A DNA stretch of 63,894 nucleotides, filler included, from Candidatus Tectimicrobiota bacterium (GTDB lineage Bacteria; JACPSX01): the NCBI GenBank assembly GCA_016193065.1. It is 6 parts of 6 records of this genome, joined end to end, with 100 filler letters (N's around TTAATTAATTAA, not from the genome) between each part and the next. Parts side by side here need not be neighbours in the genome. Positions count along the whole stretch, not along the records: positions 28,937 to 46,293 come from JACPSX010000235.1; 5 more parts are not named here. The stretch is one strand, 5' to 3'. The translations under genes and the position numbers were made by a program. Of the stretch, positions 14,633-61,392 are shown piece by piece. The notes below the pieces were generated by a model, which was not told the DNA's origin, did no database searches, and saw only the letters and a list, made by a program, of their open reading frames with translations. Position 1 is the first letter of the stretch, and each line of letters opens with the position of its first letter.

Positions 14633-14732
14633 NNNNNNNNNNNNNNNNNNNNNNNNNNNNNNNNNNNNNNNNNNNNTTAATTAATTAANNNNNNNNNNNN
14701 NNNNNNNNNNNNNNNNNNNNNNNNNNNNNNNN
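14633..14732. other. Contig linker
   Basis: N-run, TTAATTAATTAA (stops in all frames), N-run. Confidence 0.99.
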
Positions 14733-28836: not shown

Positions 28837-28936
28837 NNNNNNNNNNNNNNNNNNNNNNNNNNNNNNNNNNNNNNNNNNNNTTAATTAATTAANNNNNNNN
28901 NNNNNNNNNNNNNNNNNNNNNNNNNNNNNNNNNNNN
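28837..28936. other. Contig linker
   Basis: N-TTAATTAATTAA-N. Confidence 0.99.
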
Positions 28937-29040
28937 GCCGAGTTGGCCATCGCTAAACCACTCATATTCAGAGGGAAAGTCCAGACACTCGGCATAGCCC
29001 GGGACTCGGCATAGTGGCGCTTATGCCGAGCTCGGCATAA
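28937..29040. mobile_element. End of RIT-type element 1 (rest beyond contig edge), inserted in intI
   Basis: Boxes CTCGGCATAG (28988, 29005) 7 bp apart, then TGGCGC and the palindrome TTATGCCGAG/CTCGGCATAA abutting the intI Arg codon. Confidence 0.7.
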
Positions 29041-29041
29041 T

Positions 29042-30051
29042 CGCCACTCCTTTGCGACCCAGCTACTACAGGACGGCTATGATATTCGGACAGTCCAGGA
29101 ACTGCTCGTGCACCAGGATGTCAGTACGACCATGATTTATTATGCGCAGACAGTCGTTATGCGCAGTGAGGTGCCCTAACCCTTTGATTGCAAGGCCATG
29201 TGGTTGGCGGGACTGCACATAACAACCTAGGGTCTTCGCTTTGGTCGAATTCAGAAAATCCAAAAAGATCGTGAGTTCTCTGGTGCGCCATTGAAGGGTC
29301 GCCGGCCGAAGCTGAAGTCGATCCTTACAGTACTGTTCGTAGTCACGAAGTGCGTTCTTCATGGCTGGAAGAAGATGGATCTTTTCCATGTCGGTGAAGG
29401 CACGTTCGATGCAGCCGTGTTGAGCAAAGTCCGCAAGCGCCTTTACACCAAACACGATATGCCGTCGCCATCCCTCGCCCGGCTTATCCACCTCCTCATC
29501 CCCCACGCGATACTCCTGCACAAAGCGCGCTGCCAGATCCCCGGAAAACTCATCTCCCAGTTTGTTCTGGCGGGAAAACTCGATGAGGTGTCTCCAGATT
29601 GCTCGATACCGACCCAGTGATCTCCTGCTGTAGCCTAACTGCTCGATCTCGCCCAGGGCATTCCCAACAAGTCGGCCCAGTGGCAAGTTCCCTGAAACTA
29701 AACGATTGGATTGATCCATGATCGACCTCCTCTGAAAAGCGGCGACCCCCATGGCCGCCGAGAAGACCCATCATGAAATCTTATGTGCTGCATTCCAAGA
29801 GAAATGACCTGACCGGCAAGCACTTACCGAAGCGACTCTACATAACCCTCCGCTGCGCATAATAAATCTTATGTGCAGCTGCACATAAGATTTACACCCA
29901 TGTCTTGAATCGGGGCGGGCGTGGGGTCTACAGCCCTGCGGATCGGCTCGGATTGGAGAGGCTTTCGCACGGCTCGCCCGGAAATAGGCTGCGGGCCGAT
30001 AGCGGGATAGGCTGCCAGACTGGCCGTATTTTTCGGACGAAAAATGGTTGA
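29042..30051 (+). pseudogene. intI: Integron integrase, C-terminal part, split by RIT-type insertions
   Basis: 29042-29139 [33 protein letters not shown]; resumes at 29890 IYTHVLNRGGRGVYSPADRL; GATTTA duplicated at both junctions; attC downstream. Confidence 0.9.
29140..29888 (-). mobile_element. Internally deleted RIT-type element 2 carrying only the 5' part of a RitA-like tyrosine recombinase (29719 to ~29225)
   Basis: Symmetric ends of TTATGxGCAG boxes (29140, 29157, 29213 / 29781, 29836, 29853); ORF MDQSNRLVSGNLPL...GYSRRSLGRY resembles an integrase N-terminal domain with no catalytic domain. Confidence 0.75.
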
Positions 30052-30134: not shown

Positions 30135-30169
30135 TGACACCGTCTAAGCGGCTCACTTAATAGTTAGAC
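30135..30169 (+). other. Putative attI site (core GTTAGAC)
   Basis: GTTAGAC at 30163-30169 is the exact complement of the GTCTAAC closing cassette 1. Confidence 0.65.
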
Positions 30170-30254
30170 GGCACGTGATGTTCTGGTTCACGTCGTGGAG
30201 CGGTAGCGGAGCCGCCGACCCGATTCCTAAGCAGAGTATTCCATCGAGGTATCC

Positions 30255-31046
30255 ATGAACCCCTATTTCGAACTTGCAGAGCCACAGGTTATTGCGGACG
30301 TCGAGAGGCTGCTGTCTCTGAATGTGGAAAAGACGTACTACCGCCCTGGTGACGAGGCTCAAGTCACCGACATCCTGAGTACCCATTCGTCGCCACACTC
30401 GACTCCCGGGATCTTTCGGGGCCAGCTACGTGACTGGCCACTGATACCAAAGAGTTTTCGCGGGATCAATGATCAGGAAGCGGAAGTCACAGGGGTGATA
30501 CGTACGTATCGATGGATGCGGGCGACAAGCAAGTTCAGGAGTTTCTGCGAGCGCGCCGAGGTTCAGAATCCAGCGTTTCCATCGGGTGTCTCCGATCGAA
30601 TGTCAATCGCGCAGCACTTCGGCGTACCCACGCCTCTTCTAGACTGGTCCCAGAACATCCTTGCGGCGGTGTTCTTCGCAATACGGGATGTCTTCGCGGA
30701 CTCAGAGTTCGAGAAGTCGCTGAGGGTGTTCGTGTACCACATCATTGATGAGCGACTTCTTCACGATGGGATTCCTGAGGATTTGAAACTCGCCGATTTC
30801 GGCCGTTCGGCGTTCATCAGGCCGTATCCCATAGACCGTAGAATCGAGCGCCAGCGCGGTGTTTTCACTTACCATCCCCACCCGACCCATCGGCCGCCCA
30901 AGGTTTCGGCGAAGACGTACGTCTTGGAGTGGCCCGTGATCCACAAGCTGATCGCTCTGATGAAAGGATTCGGGTTTACGGAGGACTACTTCTTCCCTGA
31001 CTACGCTGGCATTGCCCATGCCGTTATGTCGGATACGAGTCTCTAG
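30255..31046 (+). CDS. FRG-domain protein (integron cassette 1)
   Basis: IFRGQ, AQHFGVPTPLLDWSQN..AAVFFA, RIERQRGVF, FPD. Confidence 0.9.
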   Translation: MNPYFELAEPQVIADVERLLSLNVEKTYYRPGDEAQVTDILSTHSSPHSTPGIFRGQLRDWPLIPKSFRGINDQEAEVTGVIRTYRWMRATSKFRSFCERAEVQNPAFPSGVSDRMSIAQHFGVPTPLLDWSQNILAAVFFAIRDVFADSEFEKSLRVFVYHIIDERLLHDGIPEDLKLADFGRSAFIRPYPIDRRIERQRGVFTYHPHPTHRPPKVSAKTYVLEWPVIHKLIALMKGFGFTEDYFFPDYAGIAHAVMSDTSL

Positions 31047-31075
31047 GGCACCAAGCTCGATGTCGCCGGTGTGCC

Positions 31076-31153
31076 GTCTAACAGGCCATTCGAGACGGAC
31101 CTTCGCAAGTGGGCTTCGCCCGCTCGCTCGGCCGCTCAATGGCGACGTTAGGA
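31076..31153 (+). other. Integron attC site
   Basis: GTCTAAC (RYYYAAC)...CCATTCGAG / CTCAATGG L boxes with extra-helical base...GTTAGGA; imperfect palindrome. Confidence 0.9.
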
Positions 31154-31160
31154 GGTTCTC

Positions 31161-31883
31161 ATGAGCAGATATGTCATTGGATGTTGCTTATTTCTGGCGA
31201 TATCATTTGCTGGATGCGAATCTCAGGCTGATACGATAGCCCGCGAGATTGGAAACCTTGGTCACACAGACGCTGCCGTTCGCGCACAAGCAGCGAAGTA
31301 CCTCGGTTCTGTCAAGGCAACCCAGGCCATACCTGCCCTGATTAGAGCCTTGAATGACCGAGCCGAAGTGGAAATGAGAGGCCCCGTCAAACTTCTCAGG
31401 GGGGGCTATCCTAAGGTATACGTCCAGAATGTTGTTGCTATCGCTCTCTACGATATTGGACCCACAACCGTCGAACCGCTTTTTGCCGAACTTCAGCGAT
31501 CCAGAAGTTCATGGCTGAAAAGGGGAATAATCTTGTCTTTATGTTATATTATCAATAAACCTTGCCACGACACGCGAATACGTTCCCTGATATTGGATTC
31601 TGTAAGAAGCCAAAATAGCGATGTACGAGTAGTTTCAGCCAATAGATTAGGTGCAGCCTGGTTAGGGGCACAGTCATCGCAGGAACGAGAGTCAATAATA
31701 AACACCCTGAAAAGTGCGTTAACAGATTCAGATTGGTATGTCAGATCACATGCTGTCGAGTCTGCGGAAATCATTGGTTCTTCGGATGCAGTTTCGTTAT
31801 TGAAGACCAGGTTATCTGATGAACAAGACTCAGTTGTTAAGTCAAAAATCGAGAGTTCATTGAAGAAACTGCAAAAAAAATAG
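31161..31883 (+). CDS. HEAT-repeat lipoprotein (integron cassette 2)
   Basis: Lipobox FAGC; VRAQAAKYLG..AIPALIRALND and LTDSDWYVRSHAV repeats; AT-rich; begins right after attC. Confidence 0.82.
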   Translation: MSRYVIGCCLFLAISFAGCESQADTIAREIGNLGHTDAAVRAQAAKYLGSVKATQAIPALIRALNDRAEVEMRGPVKLLRGGYPKVYVQNVVAIALYDIGPTTVEPLFAELQRSRSSWLKRGIILSLCYIINKPCHDTRIRSLILDSVRSQNSDVRVVSANRLGAAWLGAQSSQERESIINTLKSALTDSDWYVRSHAVESAEIIGSSDAVSLLKTRLSDEQDSVVKSKIESSLKKLQKK

Positions 31884-31899
31884 CGTCGACCAATAAAGG

Positions 31900-32515
31900 T
31901 GTGATTTTTCAGGAGTATTCCCCCACTTTTAGCTGAGTTTTTCAGGAGCTTTCCGCCACCCCTTTTCAGGACCATTCCCCCACCCCCCGTGCGTCCCGAG
32001 TCGGGGATTCTCACCTCCCAGGAAAGGAGGTGGGCATGGCCTATCGGGAGATGGGGATGGTGGAGATTCGAGAAGTAGTCCGCCGCTGGATGGGGAGCCA
32101 GGGCAACCGCGCCATTGCCCGGGCCACGGGCATCGACCGGAAGACGGTGGCCAAGTACGTACGAGCGGCCCAAACCCTGGGCTTGTGTCGCGGGGGGCTG
32201 GCGGCGACCGACGAGCAGATCGCCGCCGTGCGACAGGCGGTGCTCTCGGCTCCCGAGCGCCCACCGAGCCCCGAGTCCCAAACACTGGAGCCCTATCGGG
32301 AACAGATCCGCGCCTGGTTGTCCCAGGATGGTCTGCGCTTGACCAAGATCTCCCGGCGGCTGAGGGCTCTGGGAGTCACCGTCTCCTACAGCACTCTCTA
32401 TCGCTTCGCCCGCGCTCACTGCGACTTTGGCAACCCCGCGATCACCGTGCGGGTGGCCGAGCCTCCGCCCGGGGAAGCCGCCGAGGCCGACTTTGGAGTG
32501 CTCGGGATGTGCGGA
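31900..32515 (+). mobile_element. IS21-family remnant: left end plus truncated istA (ATG 32036)
   Basis: Starts TGT; three TTTCAGGA..TTCC.CCAC sub-terminal repeats; MAYRE...[17 protein letters not shown]...PPGEAAEADFG. Confidence 0.85.
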
Positions 32516-32522
32516 AGAAAAA

Positions 32523-32677
32523 GGGGTCAGGCTTGCGTAATTGCCTTTTGATGTTTGAACAATGGTTTCGCCTCTAACTTGCCTGCGCTGTTGATGCGCT
32601 GCGATGCCCCCATCGCCCGACTCAGCGTTGAGACGTCCCGGTTGAACCGTCGGGCGACTTTCGTCAGCGGCGCCCGC
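32523..32677 (-). mobile_element. RAYT/IS200-like (Y1) transposase 3' remnant, copy 1
   Basis: LTKVARRFNRDVSTLSRA...AITQA* then CCCC; repeated at 36462 and 37326. Family assignment is from recalled similarity. Confidence 0.55.
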
Positions 32678-32920: not shown

Positions 32921-33805
32921 GTGACCGATCTCCCTGCAATCTCCTTTCTGCAATTGCGTCGACGGTTTTTTAGCGACGCCGGAGAACCCATCCCCTTCGT
33001 CCTGCGCGACAAACGCAACACCCAGGATGATCCATTCGACGAATTCCTTGCGGTTGATGTACTTGCCAACCTTGCCGCGATCTCGTGCGCCAGGGCAAGC
33101 GGTCCGCTTATCACGCCGGATATGGTCCTGTACCGGCCGGATCGGTGTGCCGGATCGGTGCTCGGCGACCTTGCCGACGACCCGGACCGGATTGTTGGGA
33201 TCGAGGTGAAGAAGCTGGAACGGACGGCTCAAGGTGGTGTTGCCCGAGGGGCGGGCCTCGACTACAACACGACGCCGCCTTGCGGCCGAGTTCGCGTCTA
33301 CGATGTGGCAGGAAGGGCTGTGGACATACGGGGGTTCTACCTCTTCGTGTGCTTGGAGAAGGCCCCTGCTGGCGCCCAAGGCGTTGTGGTCACGGCGCTG
33401 TGTCTAGTGGATGGGAACACCCTGAACGAAGACTTCAACTTGTACCTCAGCATCACCGGCGAGCGGGAGAAGCGTATCGGGCTCGGCACCTACGGGGACG
33501 GTGCCGACCGGGCGCGGCCAATGCTGATCTTCGCCAATCCACTCGGTGCGGCTGAACTGGATCACTGTGCCACATTGATCCACCCCGACGCCAACCTCTC
33601 ACAGAGCACGCCTGACCTGCTGCTCGCGTACCGTCTCCACCGGTCCGTTCCGGGCGATGGCATCCGGACCTTCTACTGCTACCGGATTAGCTCCGATCTG
33701 CCCCAGGATTGGCGGGTCAGCGACCTCCGGGATCCGCTTCCCATGCCAACCCGAGAAGCTCGGACCCGTCCACGGGGCCGCTTCAAGCTTCCCTTCCGCC
33801 TATAG
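32921..33805 (+). CDS. Putative type II restriction endonuclease
   Basis: PD...GIEVKK PD-(D/E)xK pattern; convergent with and overlapping the MTase. Confidence 0.65.
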   Translation: MTDLPAISFLQLRRRFFSDAGEPIPFVLRDKRNTQDDPFDEFLAVDVLANLAAISCARASGPLITPDMVLYRPDRCAGSVLGDLADDPDRIVGIEVKKLERTAQGGVARGAGLDYNTTPPCGRVRVYDVAGRAVDIRGFYLFVCLEKAPAGAQGVVVTALCLVDGNTLNEDFNLYLSITGEREKRIGLGTYGDGADRARPMLIFANPLGAAELDHCATLIHPDANLSQSTPDLLLAYRLHRSVPGDGIRTFYCYRISSDLPQDWRVSDLRDPLPMPTREARTRPRGRFKLPFRL

Positions 33806-36308
33806 ACGCGGGCTCCAAGAGATCGAGCTGTACCGACCCAGGCTGCGGTGCCACAGGGCCTGGCAGGGCACATATCTCTTGCTCGCGCCATGTCTTTTCG
33901 ATAATTCCGCGAGTCCTGGGCAGGACAACCTCAAGGGCAGCACTCACCTCGTCCGCGGTCCGGCCTACGCTCATCTCCACGAGGAGCTGACTGAGTAGGA
34001 CCACTCGCACATCGTTGCGGGAGAGCTGGCGCCCCACCCCGTTGAATCGGCTGACCTTCTGACTGGTGCTTGCGACGGCGCGTTGCAGGGCTACGTTTTG
34101 CTCACTCCGGATGCGGTGATCTGAATTCCGCTTTCGGCAGACGAGAAGCACATCGAGGTCGATTGGCTCCTTCGCCTGACTCTTCGGAGCGGCTACTGAC
34201 ATCTCGGCCTTGACCGGCTGGCTCTGAACGATCGTGAACCCCGCGTCGCGAACGGCCCGCGCCAGGGCGGCCCACCCGTCCTCCCGCGAGTGGTGGTAGC
34301 TGAAGACGAGGAGACCTTCGTCCCGCAGCACGCGGTGGCACTCGGCAAAGACGCGCTTCAGCTTGTCCGCGAACGCATCGGCTTCCGTATCCTGGACTTC
34401 GGTGTTTCGCCGCGTCGTGGAAGCACCCTTCGAGCGACCGTCACCGAAGTAGAGCTGCTGCCACACGAAGAAGAAGTCGGCGAGTTCGGAGAAGTGGACG
34501 TTGTAAAAGAAGGGCGGGTCCGTGATCACGAGGTCAACGCTCCCGTCGGGAAGATCTGTGGCTGACGAGTCCCCGCAAGAGAGGTACGTGCTGCCAGGCT
34601 TCAGACCGCTTTTCGGACAGCGCTCGACGACAGGACCACCCATTGGCGGGCTGATACCCACGACCTTCCTGCCTGTCTTCCGTCGGCCCGCGTACTCCAC
34701 TGCGAGTTCAAAGGGGGCTTCACGGTAGTCGAGCGCGCGAAGCAGCCGAGACAAGTACAGCGTCGAGAAAGAGCCCGAGCTCTTCGGGGTACCCCATAGG
34801 TTGGCCTCGATGGGTGTTCGCTCCGGCTTCAAGATGTGATGCGAGAACATGTGCCGCACCGCGCCTGTGCCTTCCCCCTTATAGGACGCGAACATATTGT
34901 TAAACTCGAGTACGCCCGAGAATAGCACGGCAAGCGCTTCTCGGGCCGGGCCCTCCGGGAGATCCCGAATGGCACCAGCGAGCATCGACAGCGCAAGGAG
35001 CTGGCGCTCATTGAACAGCTCGTACCAGTTCCGATACCCGTAGTTCAGGATCTGGCGCGTGTTGTGCCCGTCGGCGATGGGTACCCTCGGGAGCGGCGGA
35101 TTGATGTTCCTCAGGCGCTCCCTTGCGGTATGGAACGCGGCCAAGTCGTCGTCGGTAACGCGATGGTACCCTTTGGTTCCGTCCTTCCGAAGGACCAGCT
35201 TTGCGTATAGTCTGTGATCTGGAGGCTTACCAGCGCTCCGCGCCGTTTTCGCGATCGGGAACTCGTGTCCACACGAGCGGCAGACGGCTGTGGTTCGCTT
35301 CGCGGGCCCCTCCTGGGGATTGAAGCGCGTGCCACACCGGCATATAGTCTCGGTATCGTCTTGTCGCCCCGAGAGCACATCGCTGCATTCTGGACAGGTG
35401 ATCTTGGCCCCCGGGTTCCGCTCTTTATACGCGTGTGTCGCGAATACATAGCTTGTGAAGAGATCCACACTTGCCCTGCAGTGAGGGCACGGAATGACTT
35501 TGACCCAGAAGAAGTACAGTACGTCGCATGGTTGTCCCTCCCCGTCGACGGAGCGATAAAGCTTCTTGATCTCCTTGCCGACGGTGGACTCAAGCTTGCA
35601 GTAGAGAGCGTGGACCTCCCGGCGGTCCACTGGACCGAGTGCGACCCGGACCGCACGGTACGCCACGGCGTTGATGTCTCGGCCGATGACAGTGCACCCG
35701 AGCTTCTGCGCCTCGCCGACAGTAGTCCCGCTGCCCATGAACGGGTCGAACACCACAACGCCTGGCAGGCGGACAGGTTCGTAGAAAAGGTCCGTGACCG
35801 ACGAACCCTTGGGGGCCGCCGCCCCGAGGATTGCCGCTCGGAAGACAGATCCAAGACGTTGCGCCCACCACTTGTGGACGTGGTAAATGGGCCTGTAGAT
35901 CTCCTTGCGCCAGCTCTCGACTTCGGCGATCTCACTGACCTCCTCGAAAGGGAAACCATCTTCGATCGCACGCTCGCCTTGCACGGCAAAGAGAGGCTTT
36001 CCGTAGGGCGCTCCGGGGTCAGCGGCGCACATCTCCGCAATTGTCCTCAGCGCGGCTGCCACCCGGTAGGGTTGCCTCACCACCATGGCTCGGATAGGTT
36101 CAGGAAGGCGCCCGGCAAGGAGCAGGATTTCGTCTTCTGGACACTCTAGAAACCTGGCGAGGCGGTGAATCAGTTGTTCCGAGGGAGGGACCTTGCCGGC
36201 TTCGACTCGGGACAAATAAGCGGGGTCGACACCTAGCTTCTGGGCAGCGAGGCGAAGAGAGATCCCTAGGGAAGTCCGTCGGTTCCGAATAAAAGTTCCA
36301 AAACTCAT
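33783..36308 (-). CDS. XRE-HTH-fused amino-DNA methyltransferase with Zn ribbons
   Basis: N-terminal HTH (SLRLAAQKLGVDPAYLSRVEAG); HKWWAQRLGS; FDPFMGSGTT; CxxC pairs; TDPPF. Confidence 0.9.
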   Translation of the reverse strand: MSFGTFIRNRRTSLGISLRLAAQKLGVDPAYLSRVEAGKVPPSEQLIHRLARFLECPEDEILLLAGRLPEPIRAMVVRQPYRVAAALRTIAEMCAADPGAPYGKPLFAVQGERAIEDGFPFEEVSEIAEVESWRKEIYRPIYHVHKWWAQRLGSVFRAAILGAAAPKGSSVTDLFYEPVRLPGVVVFDPFMGSGTTVGEAQKLGCTVIGRDINAVAYRAVRVALGPVDRREVHALYCKLESTVGKEIKKLYRSVDGEGQPCDVLYFFWVKVIPCPHCRASVDLFTSYVFATHAYKERNPGAKITCPECSDVLSGRQDDTETICRCGTRFNPQEGPAKRTTAVCRSCGHEFPIAKTARSAGKPPDHRLYAKLVLRKDGTKGYHRVTDDDLAAFHTARERLRNINPPLPRVPIADGHNTRQILNYGYRNWYELFNERQLLALSMLAGAIRDLPEGPAREALAVLFSGVLEFNNMFASYKGEGTGAVRHMFSHHILKPERTPIEANLWGTPKSSGSFSTLYLSRLLRALDYREAPFELAVEYAGRRKTGRKVVGISPPMGGPVVERCPKSGLKPGSTYLSCGDSSATDLPDGSVDLVITDPPFFYNVHFSELADFFFVWQQLYFGDGRSKGASTTRRNTEVQDTEADAFADKLKRVFAECHRVLRDEGLLVFSYHHSREDGWAALARAVRDAGFTIVQSQPVKAEMSVAAPKSQAKEPIDLDVLLVCRKRNSDHRIRSEQNVALQRAVASTSQKVSRFNGVGRQLSRNDVRVVLLSQLLVEMSVGRTADEVSAALEVVLPRTRGIIEKTWREQEICALPGPVAPQPGSVQLDLLEPASIGGREA

Positions 36309-38599: not shown

Positions 38600-39427
38600 A
38601 TGGCACGAAATATAACTAGTCTTGGCGCCAAGGAAAGCGACTTTCTGACCAGTCTTGCTGCAAAGGGTAAGACAATCTTTACCGGGCGGGAAGTCCGAGA
38701 ATTGCTAGGTCTTTCATCCACTCCGAAACTCTTACTTTCCCGATTGGAGCGAAAGGGGTGGGTCAAGCGGTTGGAGAGAGACCGCTACCTCTTGGTTCCC
38801 CTGGAAGCGGGACCCGAGCGTCTCTGGTCGGAGGACGCTACGCTGGTCGCGATGGCCTTGGCACCGGAAGGGGCCCTGGCTTACTGGTCAGCTATCCGCC
38901 ATTGGGGGTGGACCGATCAACTTCCGCGCACCGTTTTCGTTCAGATGATGCGGCGTCGGGCCAACTCGATCGTTGAGGCCCTCGGGGTGACCTATCGTTT
39001 CGTCACGGTCCGGCCGATCCGGTTCTTCGGGGTTATCGAGGAGCGAGCCGATCATCGGACCTTCCGGGTCACCGATCGGGAAAAGACAGTGATTGATATT
39101 CTCGACCGGATCGACCTTTCCGGAGGGTCGGGACAGGTCATCCAGACCTTAGAGGAAGCTGTGGAAGAACTGCGTTGGGATAGGCTGGATGGCTACCTTC
39201 GCAGGTTCAGGAGCAGGACTGTACCGAAACGCCTGGGCTTCCTGGTAGAAGCCCTTCCCCTGAAGGTTCCCGACCGGGAACATCGACTGGCGGAATGGCA
39301 GAGGCTTATCGGTCGTGGGATCAGTCTTCTTGATCCGGGGGGCCCGGCACTCGGACCTATCATCACCCGATGGCGGGTGCGAGTGAATGTCCACGGGTTG
39401 ATTCCAGAGTCCTTCACGTCCTTATGA
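38600..39427 (+). CDS. AbiEi-family type IV antitoxin / regulator
   Basis: wHTH LSRLERKGWVKRLERDRY; AYWSAIRHWGWTDQLP; VTDREKTVID. Confidence 0.88.
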   Translation: MARNITSLGAKESDFLTSLAAKGKTIFTGREVRELLGLSSTPKLLLSRLERKGWVKRLERDRYLLVPLEAGPERLWSEDATLVAMALAPEGALAYWSAIRHWGWTDQLPRTVFVQMMRRRANSIVEALGVTYRFVTVRPIRFFGVIEERADHRTFRVTDREKTVIDILDRIDLSGGSGQVIQTLEEAVEELRWDRLDGYLRRFRSRTVPKRLGFLVEALPLKVPDREHRLAEWQRLIGRGISLLDPGGPALGPIITRWRVRVNVHGLIPESFTSL

Positions 39428-40281
39428 TCCCCGATAGTGAGATCCGTCAGCGTGCTCGAAGTGATGATGTGGAGCCGGTCATCGTGGAGCGGGATTATGT
39501 GCTCGGGTGGGTTCTGGCAGGTTGTTTCCGACCGGAGATAGAAAAAGGATTATGGTTCTTTAAGGGAGGCACCTGCCTCAAGAAGTGCTATTTTCCGGAC
39601 TATCGGTTTTCACAAGACCTTGATTTCACTCTGACGACGCCGCTGGCCTCATCGGAAGTTGAAGGGATACTTGACGAAGCGATGCGATGGGCTGAAGAAG
39701 CTTCGGGCATTCGGTTCAGCGAGCGGCCCATTCGCCACCAAGTCGTTTTCGAAGGGACACAGCAGGAGACTCACCGCTTTAAGGTTTATTACCGAGGCCC
39801 CCACAGACAGGTAGGGGACCAGCCGTCAATCAAGCTGGACTTGACGCTCAATGAGCGAGTCCTGATTCCTGCAGTGGAACGCCCTCTGGTTCACCCATAT
39901 TCTGACCAGGAAATCCAAGGATCCATCGCTATCCGTTCGTATACCCTTGAGGAAGTATTGGCAGAGAAGATCCGGGCAGTGAGTGGGCAGCGCCGCTACG
40001 CGCTTTCTCGAGATCTGTTCGACATTCACCAACTGATCCGGAGGGGGGCCGACATAATTCGAGTTGCTCGGATTCTGCGGGAAAAGTGCGCGCTCAAGGG
40101 AGTTCCTGTTGAAGCAGTCTCGGCGAAAACTCTTTCACAGAGAAAGGAGTCGTTTCATCGGGACTGGGAGACCAACCTTTTCCACCTCCTGCCTCTCCAT
40201 CTTCGTGTCCCCTTTGAGGAAAGTTGGGATGAGGCCACCGCAGGGGTTGAGTCGGTTCGCCGAGAACTCAACGCACCATGA
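39424..40281 (+). CDS. AbiEii-family nucleotidyltransferase toxin
   Basis: ERDY, FKGGTCLKKCY, YRFSQDLDF, EKIRA, RDLFD. Confidence 0.92.
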   Translation: MIPDSEIRQRARSDDVEPVIVERDYVLGWVLAGCFRPEIEKGLWFFKGGTCLKKCYFPDYRFSQDLDFTLTTPLASSEVEGILDEAMRWAEEASGIRFSERPIRHQVVFEGTQQETHRFKVYYRGPHRQVGDQPSIKLDLTLNERVLIPAVERPLVHPYSDQEIQGSIAIRSYTLEEVLAEKIRAVSGQRRYALSRDLFDIHQLIRRGADIIRVARILREKCALKGVPVEAVSAKTLSQRKESFHRDWETNLFHLLPLHLRVPFEESWDEATAGVESVRRELNAP

Positions 40282-46293: not shown

Positions 46294-46393
46294 NNNNNNN
46301 NNNNNNNNNNNNNNNNNNNNNNNNNNNNNNNNNNNNNTTAATTAATTAANNNNNNNNNNNNNNNNNNNNNNNNNNNNNNNNNNNNNNNNNNNN
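46294..46393. other. Contig linker
   Basis: N-TTAATTAATTAA-N. Confidence 0.99.
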
Positions 46394-56915: not shown

Positions 56916-57015
56916 NNNNNNNNNNNNNNNNNNNNNNNNNNNNNNNNNNNNNNNNNNNNTTAATTAATTAANNNNNNNNNNNNNNNNNNNNNNNNNNNNN
57001 NNNNNNNNNNNNNNN
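56916..57015. other. Contig linker
   Basis: N-TTAATTAATTAA-N. Confidence 0.99.
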
Positions 57016-61292: not shown

Positions 61293-61392
61293 NNNNNNNN
61301 NNNNNNNNNNNNNNNNNNNNNNNNNNNNNNNNNNNNTTAATTAATTAANNNNNNNNNNNNNNNNNNNNNNNNNNNNNNNNNNNNNNNNNNNN
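61293..61392. other. Contig linker
   Basis: N-TTAATTAATTAA-N. Confidence 0.99.

Follow-up and report, generated by a model that had tools for sequence, protein, structure and literature searches.

The last ~52 codons of a gene for an IntI-like tyrosine recombinase (YR) lie within positions 29042-30048 of a 63,894-nucleotide stretch of DNA from a Candidatus Tectimicrobiota bacterium (GenBank assembly GCA_016193065.1; the whole stretch is called the window below), where they are bounded on one side and interrupted on the other by sequences related to RIT elements, which carry ritA, ritB and ritC in a row. The best explanation, in which we have good confidence, is that the 3' end of this gene received two independent site-specific insertions by two RIT lineages, each at its habitual target, namely the Arg-His junction of box II (element 1) and the catalytic Tyr codon (element 2); the elements would have moved as circles, by the mechanism proposed below. 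A first-pass annotation, made from the sequence alone, had proposed that an integron integrase was hit twice by such elements at its catalytic codons. We compared the locus with related copies from genomes, plasmids and metagenome contigs (designated by L numbers), in which the same codons recur as insertion sites.

The catalytic Arg and Tyr codons of an IntI-like gene are both cut

The gene is preserved in two pieces on the + strand. Piece A (29042-29139) runs from the Arg-His of box II through TTMI and ends two bases into the Tyr codon, and piece B (29890-30051), beyond a gap of 755 bp, resumes the reading at 29890 with IYTHVLNRGGRGVYSPADRL and continues through the stop codon (coding read to 30048). 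Piece A corresponds to positions 133-166 of PF00589 (Pfam), and its best NCBIfam family is TIGR02249 (positions 265-297, 56.1 bits), which is also the sole family matched by piece B (positions 296-315, 19 bits, E 8.4e-4); the curated cut-off of 265 bits applies to the full length, and the gene fragments reach 56 and 19 bits. Given these ranges, piece B follows directly on piece A along the profile, the two sharing Ile-Tyr. Compared with the uninterrupted IntI-like tail of metagenome locus L120, piece A is 85% identical to residues 1-33 and piece B 80% identical to residues 32-51; by family profiles and by this comparison, box II and the IntI-type C-terminal tail are both present.

The in-silico excision suggested in the first pass therefore holds piece by piece, as the pieces, compared unjoined, abut and share the duplicated Ile-Tyr, and box II is indeed cut at the catalytic Arg by one element end and at the Tyr by a second. 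The gene is best called IntI-like and no further; the IntI-specific segment upstream of box II lies off the contig, as do the 5' ~260 codons. A search within the window revealed neither the 5' half of intI nor further element boxes elsewhere. The change from LGH to LVH, previously taken as a sign of decay, is weak in this respect, with several intact-looking targets having other residues at that Gly position.

Element 2 is a deletion derivative of a RIT

Element 2 is a 749-bp insert (29140-29888) that splits the Tyr codon and lies between two + strand copies of the core GATTTA. The first copy (junction J1, 29134-29139) comprises the G of the Met codon, the Ile codon and the TA of the Tyr codon, and the second (J3) is located at 29889-29894. 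Adjoining J1, an inverted repeat (IR) end of the ritC-distal type (29140-29222) carries boxes TTATGCGCAG at 29140-29149 and 29157-29166, and CTGCACATAA at 29213-29222. The ritA-proximal IR end (29781-29862) carries TTATGTGCTG (29781-29790), CTCTACATAA (29836-29845) and the terminal box CTGCGCATAA (29853-29862), followed by an inner core, TAAATC (J2, 29863-29868), which is the exact reverse complement of GATTTA, and by a 20-bp palindrome composed of TTATGTGCAG and CTGCACATAA (29869-29888). The inverted repeats are perfect over 16 nt, core included, and the 32 nt formed by the inverted core (core'), the two palindrome halves (b2 and b2') and the core make up a perfect palindrome, as they do in the copy on plasmid pHG1. 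The motif TTATGYRCAG occurs six times in the window, always inside 29140-29888, against 0.17 occurrences expected, and the box layout agrees with that of L003, L004, L007 and others.

Between these ends lies ritA' (29229-29719, - strand), the initial ~164 codons of a gene for a RitA-type recombinase; its ATG is at 29719, and the frame is also open from an ATG farther upstream (29752). An exhaustive protein search found 224 related library proteins (E<=0.001), with 76% identity to library protein P0003, and by tblastn the identity to RitA genes borne by plasmids of Cupriavidus and Burkholderia is 44-50% (44% to RitA of the pHG1 trio); the homologs on pHG1 and on a C. taiwanensis plasmid head annotated trios of 420/327/336 amino acids (aa). 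The homology of ritA' ends near residue 176 of the 204-aa query. At the DNA level, 29868-29229 corresponds to L003 159-798 (91.1%) and 29228-29134 to L003 3607-3701 (96.8%), L003 being a full trio of overlapping open reading frames (ORFs) of 432/327/336 aa. Since L003 matches on both sides of a clean break (29228-29229), element 2 is an L003-like RIT from which 2808 bp (L003 799-3606, with the rest of ritA, ritB and ritC) have been lost. Its gene content, ~164 codons of ritA only, falls short of the three genes expected of a RIT, and on its sequence features element 2 is a deletion derivative, not an autonomous member. The RIT-type insertion with a duplicated GATTTA that had been proposed is thus upheld, but the element is internally deleted and not complete.

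A probable RIT-type end adjoins the Arg codon

Element 1 is represented by its last 103 bp only (28938-29040), the rest being cut off by the contig start; the end proposed to the left of the gene is present, but what lies beyond these 103 bp is an artificial linker. The terminal segment (28938-29014) carries the box CTCGGCATAG at 28988-28997 and, as terminal IR, at 29005-29014, separated by a 7-nt spacer. It is followed by the inner core TGGCGC (J2, 29015-29020), which equals the reverse complement of TCGCCA at 5/6 positions, by a 20-bp palindrome composed of TTATGCCGAG and CTCGGCATAA (b2 and b2', 29021-29040), and by the outer core TCGCCA (J3, 29041-29046, + strand), which covers the Arg codon CGC together with the final base of the codon before it and the CA of the His codon. 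This layout is like that of element 2, with different boxes. The sequence TTATGCCGAG occurs twice in the whole window, at 29021-29040, against 0.08 occurrences expected. The order of IR, core and palindrome recurs beside RitABC genes in metagenome contigs, and the presence of the identical palindrome beside Rit-like genes in 55 of at least 119 contigs indicates that element 1 is probably RIT-type. The two elements differ in their boxes and in the invariant dinucleotides of their cores (CA vs TA), which assigns them to different lineages and agrees with the independence claimed for them at the outset.

Relatives of both elements recur at the same codons

The survey of element 2 relatives comprised 21 copies (18 genome loci, two plasmid loci and this locus), including two (L002 and L018) whose ritA-proximal end could not be read. 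Among the 19 readable relatives, 15 adjoin a YR gene cut at N-NNN-TA of its Tyr codon: this locus, L001, L003, L004 (with two left halves), L005, L007-L010, L012-L016 and L019. The pHG1 copy shows the same junction layout and also lies in a Tyr codon. When 13 of the target-left flanks were tested, 10 matched PF00589, all of them ending at profile position 165, the Tyr; the first-pass annotation had called for such a survey of insertion positions, and these are not random. The targets are diverse, including IntI-like, Xer-like, phage-type and RitA-like genes, and the same ATG-ATT-TA is the insertion point of L003, in a further IntI-like gene. Because the identical-ended copies L007-L010 lie in three different YR genes, the flanks are targets and not cargo.

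Upstream of the IntI-like piece in L003 (L003:70-105), homology to the present gene ends at G-Y/D-I (the slash marks the break, here and below), and a box-like string, TTATCGGCAG, 7 nt and ATGCGGCTGC, stands in its place, possibly representing a third kind of insertion.

Exact copies of the 20-nt palindrome of element 1 were found in at least 119 metagenome contigs, with at least 126 occurrences, and 55 of the 119 contigs listed carry Rit-like genes (RitA/B/C) by the IR side. Among the matches listed, 45 flanks begin with Arg-His, Arg-Lys or Arg-Gln in the frame that the core dictates and run for 22 codons or more before any stop; 32 of them belong to PF00589 and two to IS66 C-terminal regions. 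The flanks of L021, L132, L095, L120 and L094 start at PF00589 position 133, the box II Arg, as does piece A. In the complete copies L132 and L095, H-x-x-R-H can be read across the 6-bp direct repeat (H-S-F-R/H in L132, in which the core CAGACA is present three times, and H-I-L-R/H in L095). The Arg-His type accounts for 26 of the 77 listed palindromes with one IR side and one assessable other side, and at least five other IntI-like tails are cut at Arg-His (L033, L072, L094, L120 and L134). The 90 other palindrome flanks listed include no PF00589 match, and many listed flanks are without a recognizable gene; the frame of the other flanks was taken from the longest ORF touching the junction, a choice that can mislead where GC content is high, so that the numbers given for targets other than recombinases are lower bounds. 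The targeting of catalytic codons in recombinase genes is thus seen in both surveys, at the Tyr codon in 15/19 copies and, among the matches listed, at Arg-His with PF00589 in 32/45 flanks.

At L072:237-420, an IntI-like tail cut at Arg-His by a RIT of the element 1 type also has one extra nucleotide exactly at its Tyr codon; the resulting sequence, ATGATAT[T]ATACG, may be the footprint left by a departed Tyr-type RIT.

Junction layout and core sequences

The layout was aligned over 18 genome loci obtained by a RitA profile search, the pHG1 copy and this locus. Read in the direction of the target gene, all complete copies consist of target-left, a 6-bp core, IR-body-IR, an inverted core, the 20-bp palindrome, a core and target-right. 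The body occurs in both orientations, and the core'-palindrome module adjoins the 3' part of the target gene in 10/10 complete Tyr-type copies. This 26-bp module (inverted core plus palindrome) belongs neither to the target nor to the inverted repeats proper. The features noted in the first pass lie at the coordinates given there, but the element as then delimited includes this module, on the 3' side of the gene.

Among the 26 listed copies with an IR and an Arg-His palindrome, the outer core (J3) has a terminal CA in 25 and the inner core (J2) in 24; J2 and J3 agree at all six positions in 13 copies, at five in six, at four in six and at two in one, and all six Arg codons are represented. In Tyr-type copies, the TA is invariant and the first four core positions often vary among the three junctions of one copy; further copies from the groundwater runs described below have the inner cores GGTGTA and CATATA. 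Junctions of the order IR-core'-palindrome-core-IR were found in L020, and IR-like sequence flanks both sides of 6/126 palindromes among the matches listed. Such junctions fit either circles or insertion into the full site of a resident copy. The copies L008 and L009, which belong to the same metagenome-assembled genome (MAG), occupy recombinase genes that are nearly identical; at the Tyr-codon junction (L008:5836-5846), L008 lacks one base relative to L009, and its three cores all differ.

Targets outside recombinase genes

Lineages sharing the palindrome of element 1, or related to element 2, also occupy genes other than those of recombinases. Reverse-transcriptase genes account for 7/90 of the other flanks listed, the matches ending at RVT_1 position 154 (RYAD/; the YADD-site copies L038, L041, L064 and L122) or 123 (PQG/; the PQGG-site copies L023, L050 and L052). 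Four copies (L046, L031, L034 and L093) lie in the last codons of radC, at position 120 of 121 of the RadC profile, where the insertion barely shortens the protein. The IS66-region copies are L079 and L135, and the element 2 relative L011 is located in a gene for a DDE transposase. Two further copies are inserted in RIT genes themselves: at L007:9362-9541, the target tail, IYAKVDIAALR, is RitA-like, and at L086:287-1509 the target gene is RitC-like (tblastn).

Proposed mechanism and alternative explanations

From the anatomy, the homologies and the recurring target positions, all of which were read directly, we infer a circle, an order of strand exchange and an assignment of Rit proteins to arms. 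In this model, J1 would consist of target arm, core and IR, J2 of IR, inverted core and b2, which would make it a complete symmetric site, and J3 of b2', core and target arm. Recombination between J1 and J3 would release a circle and reseal the gene, and the junction of the circle would be a twin site, IR-core'-b2-b2'-core-IR, forming a palindrome of ~52 bp. Either half of the twin site could cross over with a target, and integration via either half would result in both body orientations, with the spare palindrome half always on the 3' side of the target. The exchange would proceed across a 6-bp overlap; a match would be required in its final dinucleotide (TA or CA), which adjoins the element arm, and mismatch would be tolerated at the other four positions. 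As a speculation on the division of labor within the trio, the arms of the element might be handled by one Rit protein and the two dissimilar arms of the target by the other two.

A number of observations weigh against two habitual insertions through circles. Four of the 19 readable element 2 relatives are outside YR genes: L006 in a frame that resembles a glycoside hydrolase by eye, L011 in the DDE transposase gene (Pfam), L017 in an unassigned target that was not counted as YR, and L020 next to another RIT end. The flanks of L001, L014 and L015 gave no Pfam hit (3/13), their assignment as YR relying on H-x-x-R ... Y motifs and, for L001, also on RefSeq annotation, and 13 of the 45 Arg-His/Lys/Gln flanks are not PF00589. 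In some copies the target halves do not match: the RIT at L004:5858-9420 is flanked by left (5') halves from two different genes, L120:2441-2560 is a solo palindrome between two right (3') recombinase halves, and L093:1374-4815 is a RIT with palindromes on both sides; we attribute these odd copies to recombination between copies. The left partner of element 1 is absent from the contig, which makes a later rearrangement at that junction possible. By eye, the target arms bear no obvious similarity to the element boxes, which leaves target recognition unexplained. No circle, excision product or empty site of the exact locus was seen among the Logan contigs, which contain uninterrupted homologs only. 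Finally, Van Houdt 2012 (PMC3414803) states that the mobility of RITs has no experimental demonstration.

The alternative that survives best accepts the same insertions and differs in their purpose: the elements would not hunt rivals, and the conserved motif DNA of mobile-element genes would serve as a widespread landing pad that is neutral for the host and offers a ride on plasmids, integrons and carriers of that sort, gene inactivation being a side effect. We give this view an even chance. It is favored by the sister lineages with the same palindrome in reverse-transcriptase genes, by the copies at the radC 3' end, which barely truncate the protein, in IS66 C-terminal regions and in the DDE transposase gene, and by the RITs inserted in Rit genes; yet the data do not separate the two selective readings, and both can hold together. 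A broader proposal, which we consider tenable but somewhat less probable than not, is that RITs constitute a transposon superfamily homing to catalytic-motif DNA, in which each trio would read the motif DNA of another element's enzyme (YR Arg-His or Tyr, reverse-transcriptase YADD or PQGG, IS66/DDE regions, or the radC 3' end), and the elements would act both as reversible on/off switches and as parasites of integrons, phage integrases and those of integrative and conjugative elements (ICEs), group II introns and RITs.

A different chemistry with the same targeting is rather unlikely: the terminal palindrome could act as a hairpin in single-stranded or linear DNA, as proposed by Nielsen et al. 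(2017), and no double-stranded circle with a twin site would be formed. The perfect 32-nt core'-b2-b2'-core palindromes of element 2 and of the pHG1 copy suit this view, as do the nuclease-protected RIT DNA and the lack of circular junction reads mentioned in the part of that study available to us (Nielsen 2017, PMC5737581). However, a hairpin alone explains neither the full site IR-core'-b2 nor the combination of both body orientations with a one-sided palindrome, and the junctions of circle or tandem type in L020 and in 6/126 listed palindromes argue for a circle.

Misassembly, in which repeats were wrongly joined and the 2.8-kb deletion resulted from collapse, is very improbable. It draws support from the nature of the window, which consists of concatenated MAG contigs, and of this contig, whose start falls within a high-copy repeat: summed over four runs, Logan depth is 232-2552 at 28987-29035 vs 4-21 at 30310-30400. 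Neither J1 nor J3 is spanned with at least 31 letters on both sides by any Logan contig among the matches listed; stretches without Logan cover prove nothing. Against misassembly, two Logan contigs (X1 record 1 and X2 record 9), produced by an independent assembler from two groundwater runs that may be the source samples, bridge the deletion junction 29228/29229 with zero differences, and the same junction layout is shared by dozens of other, unrelated contigs as well as by pHG1, a finished plasmid. Other Logan contigs from the same runs continue from 29228 and from 29229 onward into sequence matching the L003 interior, and together with the bridging contigs they indicate that deleted and full-length forms coexist. 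Two candidates were discounted: a Logan joint 29139>29984, considered as an excision product, extends for just 24 letters on the shorter side and does not fit precise excision, and uninterrupted IntI-like Logan sequences at the loose ends 29041, 29075 and 29889, considered as the empty site, are homologs and not demonstrably this locus.

Untargeted transposition that met catalytic codons by chance could account for the relatives outside YR genes (4/19) and for the many listed palindrome flanks without a recognizable gene, but is practically dismissed by the recurrence of the same codon in 15/19 Tyr-type copies, with PF00589 position 165 in 10/13 flanks, by 32 listed flanks that begin at the box II Arg, by the invariant TA and CA dinucleotides, and by the diversity of the flanks, which also makes a single ancestral locus copied around unlikely.

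Genomic context

The window is composed of six unrelated draft or MAG contigs joined by five artificial linkers of the form N44-TTAATTAATTAA-N44 (14633-14732, 28837-28936, 46294-46393, 56916-57015 and 61293-61392), and adjacency across linkers is therefore meaningless. The IntI-like locus is at the very start of the contig at 28937-46293 (JACPSX010000235.1), directly after the linker at 28837-28936, which is not genomic, and proA/proB to its left belong to a different contig.

Downstream of the gene, a possible first cassette (30163-31153, + strand) comprises GTTAGAC at 30163, an FRG-domain ORF (30255-31046) and an attC-like hairpin (31074-31153). The hairpin, a single site, is imperfect, with GTCTAAC ... 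GTTAGGA, bulged bases and a fold z-score of -2.08 on the bottom strand. It is followed by a HEAT-repeat ORF (31161-31883), so that cassette-like units span 30163-31886, and by an IS21-like remnant (31899-32551) with repeated TTTTCAGGA motifs and then a truncated IstA-like ORF (weak HTH_32 hit), which may have displaced a second attC. A short cassette array downstream of intI is plausible, although tentative, resting on one attC-like site; an array in this position corresponds to the 'inverted' integron layout. A possible attI, the 30-nt inverted repeat at 30141-30172, folds no better than shuffles and remains a guess. The view that the insertions froze an integron is not established: the gene is IntI-like and disrupted, but the array, with one attC-like hairpin and cassette-like ORFs, is thin evidence, and the window revealed no 5' part of the gene. 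Further along, the contig encodes an 841-aa N6/N4 DNA methylase fused to a helix-turn-helix domain (33783-36308, - strand) and an AbiEi/AbiEii toxin-antitoxin pair (38600-40281, + strand), and as a whole it looks like a mobile or defense island.

Comparison with known systems

RIT elements occur in many bacterial phyla, and their movement, ends and targets have hitherto been undefined. This locus and the surveys provide a junction grammar, two codon-exact target rules and a testable model of the intermediate. They illustrate one way in which recombinases, those of integrons included, are turned off in nature, and they account for the breaks that draft assemblies show at such genes. The natural 749-bp mini-RIT is a ready substrate for a first transposition assay.

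The RIT elements of Cupriavidus necator pHG1 and C. metallidurans CH34 are said to have been described by Van Houdt in 2009 and Ricker in 2013. Our elements share with RITs the RitA homology, the ritA-ritB-ritC order with short overlaps (in L003), a length of ~3.5 kb, and inverted repeats with an overlapping palindrome at the end; element 2 differs in having neither ritB nor ritC nor most of ritA. In the portions of the literature available to us, RIT insertions were reported in a Tn6049-like transposase gene and in radC, with the repeats termed unconvincing (Van Houdt 2012, PMC3414803), the mechanism was regarded as yet to be deduced (Nielsen 2017, PMC5737581), and RitA, RitB and RitC were treated as subgroups of their own (PMC8138268). 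Neither a catalytic-codon insertion rule nor a core'-palindrome-core module for RITs was found in the literature searched, which was available in part and included neither Ricker et al. 2013 nor the supplementary tables of Van Houdt 2012 on RIT contexts. The same partial literature, again with Ricker et al. 2013 outside the search, contained no statement that RITs often insert in YR genes, which the first-pass annotation had given as known. The elements are thus of a known kind, and in those parts of the literature that were examined, neither the codon-exact target rules nor the junction grammar seem to have been reported before.

Tn554, SE and GInt elements resemble RITs in having several tyrosine recombinases together, in site-specific integration and in the lack of target duplication. 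The junction hexamer of Tn554 varies and travels from one site to the next; the target site of Tn554 is the radC 3' end, which one RIT lineage also uses. With regard to a fourth gene of the TnpC/Srap/GinD type, there is no fourth ORF in the 3.5-kb L003, and no homology search for one was made. SEs are described, in the part of the source available, as carrying 'the 6 bp of the left flank' (PMC10214605). In contrast, neither the twin palindromic site nor the catalytic-codon targets of RITs are described for these elements in the literature examined, as far as it was accessible.

Tn916 and CTnDOT offer a parallel at the level of the overlap: the RIT cores at the three junctions of one copy often differ at their first four positions and keep the two arm-side bases invariant, like coupling sequences. 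IntDOT needs a two-base homology, and Tn916 and Tn554 tolerate similar overlap mismatch. Unlike RITs, Tn916 and CTnDOT are conjugative elements with a single integrase and arm-type sites, and their integrases are not known to be homologous to Rit proteins. Inteins and homing endonuclease genes, IS1111-attC elements, group IIC-attC introns and the res hunters of the Tn5053 type likewise target conserved catalytic coding positions or the machinery of other mobile elements. Compared with all of these, however, the chemistry is entirely different; a RIT breaks the reading frame at the DNA level and is not spliced out.

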